DNA from: Candidatus Thalassarchaeum sp.
GTDB taxonomy: Archaea > Thermoplasmatota > Poseidoniia > Poseidoniales > Thalassarchaeaceae
Direction of reading: 5' to 3'
NCBI GenBank assembly: GCA_022449345.1
Contig: JAKURL010000001.1
Location: 14,211 to 78,210 of the forward strand
DNA: 64,000 nt
Of this stretch, positions 43,489-46,691 are shown in pieces; positions within the stretch are counted from its first letter, which is position 1; every line of letters begins with the position of its first letter. The position numbers were made by a program, and so were the translations under genes. The notes beneath the pieces are model-generated. The model saw only the letters and a list, made by a program, of their open reading frames with translations. It ran no database searches and was not told where the DNA came from.

Positions 43489-44112
43489 ATGCGCCGCTAC
43501 ATCCCTCCTAGTCCATTCTATACCTTTGAACCATTACGTCATGACCCCTTAGTGATAATTCCATTAATCCAATCTTCACAAGGTGGAGATCATTCAGAAA
43601 TTAAGGAAATTGAAGGTGTTCCTTCCTCAATTCTTGAATTAGTTGAAGGAGAAAATCCTCCAATGGACCCTGCAATGATGCTATTTATTTGTGGAATTGC
43701 TTGGAAAAGCGAGGGGGGTATGTTGGAATCCCTAGACAAAGGTGTGAGCAGAGAACGCATCGGCCGATTTCCAGTTGAAGGCGGCAATGCGATAGAATAC
43801 CTACTCAATCATACAATCGAGAAGGCCGATGATGGGCTTCAGGAGTTACTTGCAAAACTTACTCTAGGTCTAGATGAAGAGTTTCTAGGTGAAAGTGGAT
43901 TCTCATCGGGTATTGGAGGCTTGGAATTATGCGGTTGGCTTGATCCAAAAGATGTAACCATCCTTCGTCGGGCAATCCAGAAAGGAAAATGGGCAGTTAA
44001 TCCGAACGAGCCCCTCGATGGTGGAGTAGCCGATGCTTTCAGGCACCTTACAGTTATTTTGCGAGGCGCAGAAAAGAGGCGTTGCGGCATTCTAATGCGA
44101 AAGCATGCTTGA
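43489..44112 (+). CDS. Hypothetical protein
   Basis: 207-aa ORF filling the gap; no motif recognised. Confidence 0.65.
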   Translation: MRRYIPPSPFYTFEPLRHDPLVIIPLIQSSQGGDHSEIKEIEGVPSSILELVEGENPPMDPAMMLFICGIAWKSEGGMLESLDKGVSRERIGRFPVEGGNAIEYLLNHTIEKADDGLQELLAKLTLGLDEEFLGESGFSSGIGGLELCGWLDPKDVTILRRAIQKGKWAVNPNEPLDGGVADAFRHLTVILRGAEKRRCGILMRKHA

Positions 44113-44115
44113 AAA

Positions 44116-44844
44116 TTAGACTAAGCGTAGAGCGTGAAGCCTCTCATAGATTGGCATTACTTCTTGCAAGACTGATTCATGTTCATCCGAAAGTTCACCC
44201 AATCGGAGTTGATACTCGGCAAATCCTGTCGATTTCCAAACGGAATCATACCAGTGATGGGCCCAATTTCCATCACAATCCTTTGGACCTGCTTTCCAAC
44301 TCAGCATAGATTGATCGAACGGAATTTCTAATGATGCACAAATTTTCTGCAACATGGAATTAGGGTCTAGAAGGATATCTTTCGCATCAACGATAATCAA
44401 TGGGCTATTGGATTCTAAAACCCTATCGATGATTATGGCTTGTTGAGGGAGTCCAGTAGCCCATGCATCTACCACTTCCGTTTTCTTGGCTAAGGAAAGT
44501 AAGACCTCGCGTGGATTCCTAATTAGAAAGCAATTAGTCAACAATTCTATCCAATGCAATTCCATTCCTTCGATTATGTGATGACACATGTGTTTTTGAT
44601 ACCAAATATCCGAACCGTCTGGAGAATTCGAAGTTAATTTCTCAACGATCTTTCTCCAATCGGTTTCTCCTTCATTTATGACCTCGCTGGCACTTGGGTG
44701 TTGAATTCCAGTTGCGAATAGATAGTGAGAATACAATGGCTCGTCACTACAATAGGTGTCAGACCTAGAATGGAATGAATACATCATGGCAGTGGAAATA
44801 TTTCGTGGACCAGACCACATTGCGATTCGTTTGGTTTCAGACAT
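44116..44844 (-). CDS. Sulfotransferase-like P-loop protein (BCAT-like-associated type)
   Basis: MWSGPRNISTAMMYSF, DEPLY, QKHMCHH, FLIRNP and W..HWY..V..STGF motifs. Confidence 0.8.
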   Translation of the reverse strand: MSETKRIAMWSGPRNISTAMMYSFHSRSDTYCSDEPLYSHYLFATGIQHPSASEVINEGETDWRKIVEKLTSNSPDGSDIWYQKHMCHHIIEGMELHWIELLTNCFLIRNPREVLLSLAKKTEVVDAWATGLPQQAIIIDRVLESNSPLIIVDAKDILLDPNSMLQKICASLEIPFDQSMLSWKAGPKDCDGNWAHHWYDSVWKSTGFAEYQLRLGELSDEHESVLQEVMPIYERLHALRLV

Positions 44845-45753
44845 TCAATCACCACATTGGCTCTTGATTAATTCAATGTAGAGATTCTGAAGATGTTCAG
44901 TCATCGGGCCCCGTTTACCTTCACTCATCGGCTCACCATCGTACCTTACTACAGGTGTTAATCCTGCAAATGTACCAGTTACGAAAGCTTCGTCAGCTGT
45001 CCTAACATCCTCCGTAGTGAAATCTTTCTCAAAGCAAGCAATTCCATTCGCTTTACATAGATCTATAATTTTCCTTCGTGTTATCCCATCGAGACAATAT
45101 TCACCAGTTGAAGTCCACACTTCGCCACTTTTAACGATGAAAAAGTGGGTCGAATTACAAGTCGAAACATTTCCGTTGGGATCGAGCATTAGTCCCTCGT
45201 CCCCCCCTTTTCGTTTTGCATCTAAACAGCCTGCAATGCAATTGTGCTTTGACAGACTGTTGATTCTAGGGTCCTGAGCATTTTGTGGACCTCTGATTAC
45301 ATCTACAGTAACCAAACTGATTCCTTCGATTGCTCTTTGTGGATTGGCCCTCTTATTCTCAGGTATGATGACGATTGTTGGAGGACTCGATACAACCCAT
45401 GGGGCTTGGTATGGGGTCGGTTTCAATCCACGTGTTACAATTAATCGAATGTGTACCTGATCGAACATTTCGTTGGCAGAAACCACTTCCTGGATTCGAC
45501 CAATCAATTCCTGACGAGAAATCGAGATTTCCAACCCAATTACATCGGCACCGTGCCATAACCTATCGAGGTGGTCTTCGATGAATACGAGGTTACCGTG
45601 GTGTAAACGGAAAGCCTCCCAAACTCCGTCGCCCAGAAGGAAGCCGCCATCCATGACTGAAATCTTGGCTTCGGGTCGACGAAACAATTCACCATCAATC
45701 GATATCCAGACATTCGCGTTGCGAGGGTCGCCAGTGTATTCGTGAGTACCCAC
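44845..45753 (-). CDS. Class IV (fold-type IV) PLP aminotransferase
   Basis: GDGVWE, HLDRL, SLSKHN (PLP Lys), L.GITR and EAFVTGT motifs. Confidence 0.9.
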   Translation of the reverse strand: MGTHEYTGDPRNANVWISIDGELFRRPEAKISVMDGGFLLGDGVWEAFRLHHGNLVFIEDHLDRLWHGADVIGLEISISRQELIGRIQEVVSANEMFDQVHIRLIVTRGLKPTPYQAPWVVSSPPTIVIIPENKRANPQRAIEGISLVTVDVIRGPQNAQDPRINSLSKHNCIAGCLDAKRKGGDEGLMLDPNGNVSTCNSTHFFIVKSGEVWTSTGEYCLDGITRRKIIDLCKANGIACFEKDFTTEDVRTADEAFVTGTFAGLTPVVRYDGEPMSEGKRGPMTEHLQNLYIELIKSQCGD

Positions 45754-45779: not shown

Positions 45780-46691
45780 TCAGAATGACTGACCGGTCAA
45801 TCTCTCAAACATATCGGCATATAACGTCGATGTTTCGTCGATAATTTCCTGAGGTAAAGCGGGAATTGGAGGTTCTTCGGTTTCGGCCTCCCTAGCAGCG
45901 TAGAGTTCAGAGTGATGGCCTGTCTCAAGGTAATGACCCCTGACGAATTCCTTCGATAGTTGCACTATCTCGCCTCGCTGGTAAGCCTCAGAATCCCACC
46001 ATCTGTCTTCATCCAAGGTGCCGAATGAATCGACTAGAACCGGAACACGGCCTACTCCTAGGGCGAACTCTTTCTTCCCATCCACGTGAATTAATCCACG
46101 CTTTGCAGCCTCGGTTTCAATTATCGCATCGACCTTGACGACAATATCTAGAATCGCATTAAATTCTTCATCAGTCAGGTTAGAAATTTCTAGGGCTTCT
46201 TGTCTGTCAAGCAACCTATCGAATTTTTCGAACTTGGTTGAAACCTCTAGGTATGGTTTGGGTAGTTTTACCCCCTCCTGCAATTTAGTTCCAGGCTCAA
46301 AACCGAACTCTTCTGCTGGAGCATCTCCCTTTGCGTATCTGCGCCAACCACTACCAGCGAGGTAGTGGCGGCAAATTACCTCAAGAGGCACGAATACGTT
46401 CTCTTGATCTCTTGAAATCGCACCGGGCTCTCGAATTACATCAAATCGACGTGCCAATACTCGGTCAGGTGCGTTCATCTCAATAACATGCGTATCGCAA
46501 ATTCCAGCCTCCTTAACGAGTTTAAACCAATGGCATGAGGTTCTGTTTAGTGACTCTCCCTTACGCGGAATTAAGCTCGGGATTATTTGGTCAAAGACGC
46601 TAATTTGGTCAGTATACCTAAATTCGATTACATTCGGATCTTCTGTACTCCAAACCTGCTTCACCTTACCATGGTAGATCATTTCGCCCAT
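45780..46691 (-). CDS. purC: SAICAR synthetase
   Basis: GKVK, TDQIS.FD, EVICRHYLAGS, DGKKEF, LVDSFGTLDEDR and SKEFVR motifs. Confidence 0.93.
   Translation of the reverse strand: MGEMIYHGKVKQVWSTEDPNVIEFRYTDQISVFDQIIPSLIPRKGESLNRTSCHWFKLVKEAGICDTHVIEMNAPDRVLARRFDVIREPGAISRDQENVFVPLEVICRHYLAGSGWRRYAKGDAPAEEFGFEPGTKLQEGVKLPKPYLEVSTKFEKFDRLLDRQEALEISNLTDEEFNAILDIVVKVDAIIETEAAKRGLIHVDGKKEFALGVGRVPVLVDSFGTLDEDRWWDSEAYQRGEIVQLSKEFVRGHYLETGHHSELYAAREAETEEPPIPALPQEIIDETSTLYADMFERLTGQSF

Follow-up and report, generated by a model that had tools for sequence, protein, structure and literature searches.

In the genome of Candidatus Thalassarchaeum sp. (Poseidoniales, Thalassarchaeaceae), a gene coding for a sulfotransferase-like protein directly follows a gene coding for a relative of class IV aminotransferases, and this locus raises the question of what two such proteins do together. 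The window, i.e., the whole stretch of 64,000 nucleotides that was analyzed (assembly GCA_022449345.1, contig JAKURL010000001.1, positions 14,211 to 78,210), belongs to a genome of 1.47 Mb that is 94% complete. The two proteins are called here ATL (fold-type-IV aminotransferase-like) and ST5 (Sulfotransfer_5, PF19798). ATL and ST5 show obligate genetic coupling with repeated fusion, and the pair of the window is an archaeal member of a recognised, functionally unsolved module. We propose, with a probability of about 0.6, that they would be the two obligate components of one enzyme system, whose target would be a single small anionic metabolite and in which ATL would hold its ligand non-covalently. 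The pair is laid out as follows:

45753..44845, minus strand: ATL, fold-type-IV aminotransferase-like protein of clade A (302 aa, GTG start, PF01063 145.7 bits)
44844..44116, minus strand: ST5, PF19798 Sulfotransfer_5 (242 aa, ATG start, PF19798 183.5 bits)
44842..44847, minus strand: ATL/ST5 junction TGA/ATG, the stop of ATL directly abutting the start of ST5, in the same frame

A pair that stays together and is repeatedly fused

The first-pass annotation of this DNA, made from the letters alone, had described two genes abutting without a gap between positions 44,116 and 45,753. This was exact: the letters at the junction are GGT GAT TGA ATG TCT, with TGA directly followed by ATG and zero gap between the two genes. 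In natural ATL-ST5 fusion proteins, the domains meet at the same point as this junction, with no linker.

Among the 151 Poseidoniales genomes sampled, ST5 was found in 30, with a patchy distribution by genus, and ATL was located immediately upstream of ST5 in 29/29 loci long enough to judge. When ATL orthologues were counted at E ≤ 1e-20, 29 genomes contained both genes and 121 neither, the last one containing an ST5 fragment on a 652-bp contig. The near homologues of ST5 carry source names such as Candidatus Poseidoniales and Euryarchaeota archaeon (Marine Group II). Similarly, ST5 was detected in 27 and ATL in 26 of 120 Lysobacteraceae genomes; the pair was always adjacent, neither gene was present in 93 genomes, ATL alone was present in 0, and the lone ST5 without ATL was a fragment at a contig edge.

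The first-pass annotation had stated that the two domains are paired in some marine bacteria, which is true for the pairing but understates its extent. A cross-phylum scan of 185,579 species, with one genome each, gave at least 596 ST5 loci; they come from about ten phyla of bacteria living in soil, in freshwater or in the sea. Neighbourhoods were assessed in the best 80 of these at least 596 loci, which come from Planctomycetota, Pseudomonadota, Gemmatimonadota, Actinomycetota, Chloroflexota, Acidobacteriota, Verrucomicrobiota, Marinimicrobia and Poseidoniales. In these 80 loci, ATL was found within 4 kb of ST5 in 73 cases and within 150 bp in 69, and it was co-directional in 68; such adjacency is far beyond chance. 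The ATL tree is split with full support into two clades, A and B. Clade-A ATLs (47-73% identity to that of the window) are located upstream of ST5, and clade-B ATLs (33-39%) downstream.

No third gene was conserved with the pair: when the open reading frames (ORFs) of the 80 loci were clustered all against all, only synteny within lineages emerged, after we had discounted a large cluster from high-GC loci that probably consists of antisense shadow ORFs. A Pfam tally of the 125 nearest neighbours showed no dominant family; among them were threonyl-tRNA synthetase (ThrRS, 5), haloacid dehalogenase (HAD) acid phosphatase (4), sulfatase (3) and RidA-like proteins (2). Also, a minority of 72 bacterial loci presented beside the pair a HAD-IIIB acid phosphatase (4), a sulfatase (3), a type I phosphodiesterase (3) or a RidA/YjgF-like protein (2). 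These recurring neighbours give a weak hint at sulfate-ester or enamine chemistry.

A phylogeny and a fusion survey, which the first-pass annotation had suggested as a check, gave three fusion architectures, ATL(Asn)-ST5, ST5-ATL(His) and ST5-ATL(Asn), and ATL and ST5 trees that mirror each other. The label of the partner clade (A or B) requires 3 changes on the ST5 tree, vs. about 30 with shuffled labels; since so few changes are needed, ATL and ST5 have diversified together. The pairing is thus real, and it is of great age. Eukaryotic fusion proteins were found in the choanoflagellate Diaphanoeca grandis and in one marine protist of MMETSP. An in-frame read-through of the two genes (P0125, with TGA read as W), constructed and not natural, was used as a query to reach fusion proteins only.

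The fusion of the two domains that the first-pass annotation mentions in plant proteins labelled as similar to branched-chain aminotransferases (BCATs) is documented in the literature (PMC13725701; bioRxiv 10.64898/2026.09.05.748609). For example, a survey of the plant BCAT family contains one member in which a D-AAT_like domain occurs together with a Sulfotransfer_5 domain, ZbBCAT Zb1G011066 (PMC13725701). In these fused plant proteins one polypeptide carries both domains, ST5 being N-terminal, whereas the window presents two genes, ATL then ST5. Arabidopsis BCAL1/2 are presumably plant "BCAT-like" proteins of this ST5-fused type.

The two proteins and the sulfate donor

Both domain calls of the first-pass annotation, Sulfotransfer_5 and PF01063, hold at the Pfam level, but the name aminotransferase was given to a protein without the catalytic lysine. 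ATL scores above the gathering cut-off of PF01063 (Aminotran_4; 145.7 vs. 28.5 bits). It scores under the NCBIfam cut-offs of IlvE (TIGR01122, 182.3 vs. 245.55; NF006185 (PRK08320), 219.9 vs. 363; NF005146, 153.4 vs. 279), of PabC (TIGR03461, 86 vs. 177) and of D-amino-acid transaminase (TIGR01121, 160 vs. 277). The genome contains three PF01063 genes, ATL included. The second is a true type-II IlvE (396 bits vs. a cut-off of 307), and the third is located directly upstream of a PabB-like chorismate-binding gene, which is a PabC arrangement. Since a true IlvE and a PabC are present separately in the genome, ATL is neither of them. A standard IlvE or PabC, in a pairing that would not be conserved, was the opposite case considered in the first-pass annotation; the scores under all curated cut-offs and the separate genes led us to reject this identity, and the pairing is kept in 29/29 loci.

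The catalytic position of ATL is located in the following motif:

45244..45264, minus strand: motif INSLSKH of ATL (by translation), the codon of N165 being 45259-45261

In a pairwise alignment to 5mqz (IKSLNY), N165 aligns with the catalytic Schiff-base lysine of BCATs, which is K159 in the BCAT of E. coli and K145 in D-amino-acid aminotransferase (DAAT). The same position reads LNSHS in 7z79 and LKSHS in 9j32, also by pairwise alignment. K169 of ATL sits where BCATs have the tyrosine contacting O3′ of pyridoxal 5′-phosphate (PLP). To assess conservation, we aligned 70 partners encoded by other genomes, 35 of clade A, to which the ATL of the window belongs, and 35 of clade B. The column of the Schiff-base lysine contains Asn in 35/35 sequences of clade A and His in 35/35 of clade B, and this lysine is absent in all of the more than 100 ATL sequences examined. 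The position of the O3′ tyrosine is occupied by K/R in clade A and by L/M/Q in clade B. The PLP-phosphate cup (R64, T225, G260-T261) is kept in all 70 partners, and so is the acid of the pyridine nitrogen, E186, as Asp in clade B. A basic pocket common to both clades (W45, R49, H101, R103, R108, K111) is at least 95% conserved, as is N200. In total, about 60 residues are at least 95% conserved across clades A and B, although these clades are only about 35% identical.

ATL has the same fold and Pfam family as IlvE, DAAT and PabC, and it keeps the equivalents of R59, E193, T221 and T257 of E. coli BCAT; but the Schiff-base lysine is absent, Y95 is changed to H, F36 to W and Y164 to K. As this lysine is missing, we file ATL as aminotransferase-like and not as an aminotransferase, and it should be unable to run ordinary lysine-dependent ping-pong transamination. 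The conserved two-step pathway announced by the first-pass annotation stands as far as the conserved pairing is concerned; a plain transamination followed by sulfation is unlikely because ATL has no Schiff-base lysine. Judging from the residues that are kept, ATL most likely still binds PLP, pyridoxamine 5′-phosphate (PMP) or a similar phosphate-bearing ligand non-covalently.

The nearest solved structure to ATL is 7z79 (243 bits over residues 4-297), true BCATs reaching at most 171 bits. PDB 7Z79, entitled "Aminotransferase, class 4", is a clade-A protein like the ATL of the window and has in common with it an L/I-N-S-x-S motif. However, it is bacterial, was solved without a sulfotransferase partner and has an Arg where ATL has K169; its record gives no function. 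PDB 9J32 is the same protein with Lys at the Asn position, and we take the source of both structures to be Variovorax paradoxus. The ST5-adjacent ATL of an Azospirillum metagenome-assembled genome (L112) scores 416 bits to 7z79.

A recent preprint reports that about 5% of fold-IV sequences are without the lysine, with Asn in about 81% and His in about 13%, and that they form one network cluster, "cluster 8" Active-ASN/Active-HIS (bioRxiv 10.64898/2026.09.05.748609, preprint October 2026). Three rare residues are conserved in this cluster, a Trp, a His and an Asn (W67/H122/N223 by the numbering of 3WWH), and some of its proteins bear an N-terminal PF19798 domain; the preprint contains no gene-neighbourhood analysis (bioRxiv 10.64898/2026.09.05.748609). 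The three residues are W45/H101/N200 of the window's ATL, and the replacement of lysine by Asn/His and the association with PF19798 are common to both.

Two side observations concern fold-IV domains of this family. A protein of 1449 aa of the choanoflagellate Hartaetosiga balthica (P0204) joins a guanylate-kinase domain and three PDZ domains, as in a scaffold similar to membrane-associated guanylate kinases (MAGUK), to ST5 and a fold-IV domain. The latter is unusual in that its catalytic position is occupied by Lys and the position of H101 by Tyr. Also, two Poseidoniales ATL genes (G077:C10:24922-25821 and G099:C115:2206-3102) are reported as containing one in-frame TAG each; these may be pseudogenes, sequencing errors or something else.

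ST5 scores 183.5 bits to PF19798, over profile positions 2-224 of 226, vs. a gathering cut-off of 23.2. An AlphaFold2 model of ST5 built on 14 sequences has a predicted local distance difference test (pLDDT) score of 94.2 and a predicted template modeling (pTM) score of 0.91. When this model was compared to the PDB with Foldseek, the best 16 matches were all sulfotransferases (E 3.5e-8 to 1.7e-5, template modeling (TM) scores 0.45-0.57), including TPST1/2, CurM ST, OLS ST, 3rnl and StaL. With a sequence profile of ST5, CurM ST (4gbm, E 6e-6) and OLS ST (4gox, E 3e-5) were the only solved structures found, and this alignment spans the region of ST5 with R109 and S117. Conservation in 111 family sequences singled out the following motifs:

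44791..44814, minus strand: SGPRNIST, P-loop-like putative 5′-phosphosulfate loop, residues 11-18 (R14, S17 and T18 invariant)
44575..44601, minus strand: YQKHMCHHI, candidate catalytic Lys/His (K84 and H89 invariant; H88 in 103/111)
44494..44520, minus strand: RNPREVLLS, 3′-phosphate-type motif (R109 and S117, eight residues apart, invariant)

E35 is likewise invariant in the 111 sequences and is a further candidate for a catalytic residue. The loop SGPRNIST follows strand 5-11 of the model, and we take it to be the equivalent of the PKSGTT/PRSGST loop of sulfotransferases using 3′-phosphoadenosine 5′-phosphosulfate (PAPS). Similarly, K84/H89 may have a catalytic role by analogy with K106/H108 of cytosolic sulfotransferases, and we take the Arg and Ser eight residues apart (R109, S117) to match the spacing of the 3′-phosphate motif of PAPS sulfotransferases.

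The solved relatives differ from ST5 in their substrates and partners. TPST1/2 (5WRJ, 3AP1, 8W5Z) are its best Foldseek matches (E 3.5e-8 to 1e-6, TM 0.5-0.56) and have a PAPS-dependent P-loop sulfotransferase fold. However, these are enzymes of the Golgi membrane whose acceptors are protein tyrosines, their identity to ST5 is 13-16%, and there is no sign of a protein acceptor for ST5. The ST domains of CurM and OLS (4GBM, 4GOX) have in common with ST5 a PRxxST-type loop and the R...S 3′-phosphate motif, with an identity of about 15%. These domains are located inside polyketide synthases, act on beta-hydroxyacyl chains bound to the acyl carrier protein (ACP), hand over to a thioesterase and have no fold-IV partner, whereas ST5 is paired with ATL. 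From the fold and the motifs computed here, ST5 is predicted to be a PAPS-dependent sulfotransferase, PAPS being the presumed donor.

A natural fusion of a complete adenosine 5′-phosphosulfate (APS) kinase to ST5 exists in a relative (P0134; PF01583 203 bits, PF19798 170 bits). An APS kinase is also present in the archaeon's own genome, on another contig (C27:21432-22313), and PAPS in this archaeon can presumably come from this enzyme encoded elsewhere. A strong APS-kinase match was found in 26/30 Poseidoniales genomes with ST5 vs. 22/121 without; these genomes are kin and not independent, and the co-occurrence is only suggestive. We also observed that this APS kinase, the only one of the genome, bears a cytidylyltransferase-like domain fused to its C-terminus (PF01467, 24.8 bits), and that two further sulfotransferase-like ORFs (L115:1474-2352 and L116:1282-2133; PF13469/PF00685 matches) are located 2-5 kb downstream of it. 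This region could be a compact island for PAPS synthesis and sulfation, and the fused nucleotidyltransferase domain might be a substitute for ATP sulfurylase.

Proposed mechanism and competing explanations

In the two-component system that we favour, ST5 would use PAPS as sulfate donor, and ATL and ST5 would act as a physical complex on one small anionic metabolite. ATL would either present the acceptor, which might be held as an adduct of the cofactor, to be sulfated, or act on the product once it is sulfated. The sulfation could be the final modification, or it could activate a leaving group, as in CurM and OLS ST.

Several points weigh against this proposal. No canonical ATP sulfurylase (PF01747 Sat-type, PF01507 CysD-type) was found in the 94%-complete genome, and the supply of PAPS is thus not fully accounted for. 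The binding of a cofactor by ATL would follow from conserved residues only, and its ligand may not be PLP, since the O3′ tyrosine is also replaced in both clades. The likeness of the ST5 fold to solved sulfotransferases is moderate (TM 0.5-0.57), adenylate kinases match too, and it is from the fusions that we infer a physical complex. No functional paper was found for PF19798, At5g27410/At3g05190, 7Z79/9J32 or the Variovorax fold-IV protein, and for no member is a substrate, a product or an activity known. Finally, tomato SlBCAT7, which has the fused architecture, is reported with ordinary BCAT activity (Kochevenko 2012, cited in bioRxiv 10.64898/2026.09.05.748609), and a special role of ATL would be unnecessary if this is true. 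This activity is mechanistically unexplained, its basis being unclear (bioRxiv 10.64898/2026.09.05.748609), and the sequence makes it appear doubtful.

Among the competing explanations, the one that survives best, although we consider it unlikely, is that ATL is a non-catalytic pseudoenzyme, i.e., a specificity, scaffolding or regulatory subunit (e.g., an amino- or keto-acid sensor), and that ST5 does the chemistry alone. This would agree with the loss of the catalytic lysine in every member, together with the loss of the residue contacting O3′ of PLP, and with the obligate linkage and the fusions. Nevertheless, the lysine position is fixed as Asn or His and does not drift, and the roughly 60 conserved residues include the phosphate cup and the arginines of the pocket, although a sensor site could be conserved too. 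Such a fixed position and such conservation argue that ATL has a site, for a ligand or for catalysis, that is preserved with precision.

A second explanation, drawn by analogy, is a more specific version of the two-component system. ST5 would sulfate a hydroxyl beside a carbonyl or an amine, and ATL, with non-covalent PMP or PLP, would expel the sulfate, with His (clade B) or K169 (clade A) as the base. In this precise form it seems to us distinctly improbable, even if the nearest solved relatives detectable by sequence, 4gbm and 4gox, are "activating" sulfotransferases and the RidA/YjgF-like proteins (2/72) and sulfatases (3/72) flanking the pair in bacterial loci offer a weak argument for it. 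The His found for Lys in all clade-B partners also speaks for it, as the same replacement is known in ColD/E1. These PMP-dependent sugar 3-dehydratases are fold-type-I enzymes acting on nucleotide-sugars, in which the catalytic lysine is naturally His and the B6 cofactor is non-covalent. They constitute a precedent for clade B, but they differ by their fold type and have no sulfotransferase partner. In clade A, the window's ATL included, the residue is Asn and thus not a base, and some members, 7z79 among them, have Arg for K169. Moreover, neither an elimination product nor a pathway context is known, and TPSTs fit the fold as well as CurM.

It is a long shot that the pair performs a B6-cofactor-assisted sulfo-transfer that has no assigned gene, for example the PAPS:2-aminoacrylate sulfotransferase step toward cysteate. 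This orphan step has been written into algal and diatom models of the synthesis of cysteate, taurine and 2,3-dihydroxypropane-1-sulfonate (DHPS) (bioRxiv 10.1101/2020.10.26.355578). If true, the lysine-less fold-IV protein would hold an intermediate of the enamine/aminoacrylate type and ST5 would sulfonate it. In its general form, the idea would amount to a new enzyme class, where one and the same substrate is shared by a sulfotransferase and a protein with non-covalent PLP/PMP. The evidence supports only this general form and gives no direct support to the aminoacrylate step.

We consider it very unlikely that ATL is a working branched-chain or D-amino-acid aminotransferase and ST5 a functionally separate neighbour. 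SlBCAT7 would be the model for such a case, with its reported BCAT activities (cited in bioRxiv 10.64898/2026.09.05.748609; PMC7915847), and ATL does keep R49 and R103 (R40 and R97 of E. coli BCAT) as well as the PLP phosphate ligands. However, more than 100 sequences are without the Schiff-base lysine, ATL scores under the IlvE, DAAT and PabC cut-offs in a genome with bona fide IlvE and PabC, and it never occurs without ST5 in Poseidoniales and Lysobacteraceae; the preprint itself calls the basis of the SlBCAT7 activity unclear (bioRxiv 10.64898/2026.09.05.748609). Finally, that ST5 is another P-loop enzyme, e.g., a kinase or a nucleotide-dependent transferase, is hardly credible: Foldseek finds adenylate kinases at E ~1e-4, TM to sulfotransferases is only about 0.5 and some members are named "HAD family hydrolase" by NCBI, but the 16 best fold matches are sulfotransferases, the CurM/OLS ST profile match covers the 3′-phosphate-binding region, the loop PRNIST presents no GxxxxGK[ST] Walker A, R109-x7-S117 is invariant and a relative carries the APS-kinase-ST5 fusion.

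Neighbours, origin and meaning of the pair

Two further genes flank the pair in the window:

45780..46691, minus strand: purC, SAICAR synthetase (PF01259 140.9 bits), co-directional, 26 nt upstream of ATL
43489-44112, plus strand: convergent 207-aa ORF, with its stop 3 nt away from the stop of ST5

The gene purC is probably co-transcribed with the ATL-ST5 pair. It was found upstream of the pair in 25/25 loci of one Poseidoniales family (f1), in 0/4 of another (f3) and in none of the bacterial loci. Since it occupies this place only in family f1, purC was rejected as a component of the module and is regarded as a lineage-specific neighbour. The 207-aa ORF matched no Pfam or NCBIfam family. It is kept at the same position in several Poseidoniales genera (49-84% identity), and it is absent beside the pair in others and in bacteria.

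The first-pass annotation also held that the pair was probably acquired from bacteria. The distribution fits this view: among 301 Thermoplasmatota genomes, ST5 was present in 17, which belong only to three families of Poseidoniia, whereas the other families sampled, more than 40, were all without it. The distribution is therefore read plausibly and most economically as an acquisition from bacteria, but the trees leave the matter undecided. In a quick tree, the archaeal ATLs group with two Marinimicrobia sequences (97% by the Shimodaira-Hasegawa-like approximate likelihood ratio test, SH-aLRT), beside a proteobacterial clade, which suggested a nested position of the archaea among bacteria. A tree with the archaea outside all bacterial clade-A sequences was not rejected by the approximately unbiased (AU) test (p = 0.475), and since this alternative is kept we make no claim on the direction of transfer.

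Two observations also concern the movement of the pair. On a 2.0-Mb contig labelled Planctomycetota (L075:3064-4690), an ATL 72% identical to that of the window nests inside the Marine Group II clade of the ATL tree, which would reflect either a recent transfer from an archaeon to a bacterium or an assembly or labelling problem. Also, the ATLs of family f3 (L008, L009, L011, L015), without purC as neighbour, branch from inside the ATLs of the family to which the window belongs, beside the genus of the window. This suggests that the pair may have moved between two Poseidoniales families and does not reflect vertical descent.

ATL-ST5 is among the most widely conserved two-protein modules without a function, as it is inherited as a unit in archaea as well as in about ten phyla of bacteria, and occurs in fused form in plants, choanoflagellates and marine protists. 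The partner of ST5 is labelled as a branched-chain aminotransferase in databases and in plant papers, and this is misleading when metabolism is reconstructed, also that of Marine Group II archaea. The all-or-none presence of the pair within the well-sampled Poseidoniales makes comparative metabolomics or ecological correlation feasible, and the small size of the archaeal genome leaves few candidate substrates. If this module were solved, a new metabolite, sulfated or sulfonated, or else a novel use of the PLP fold would probably come to light.

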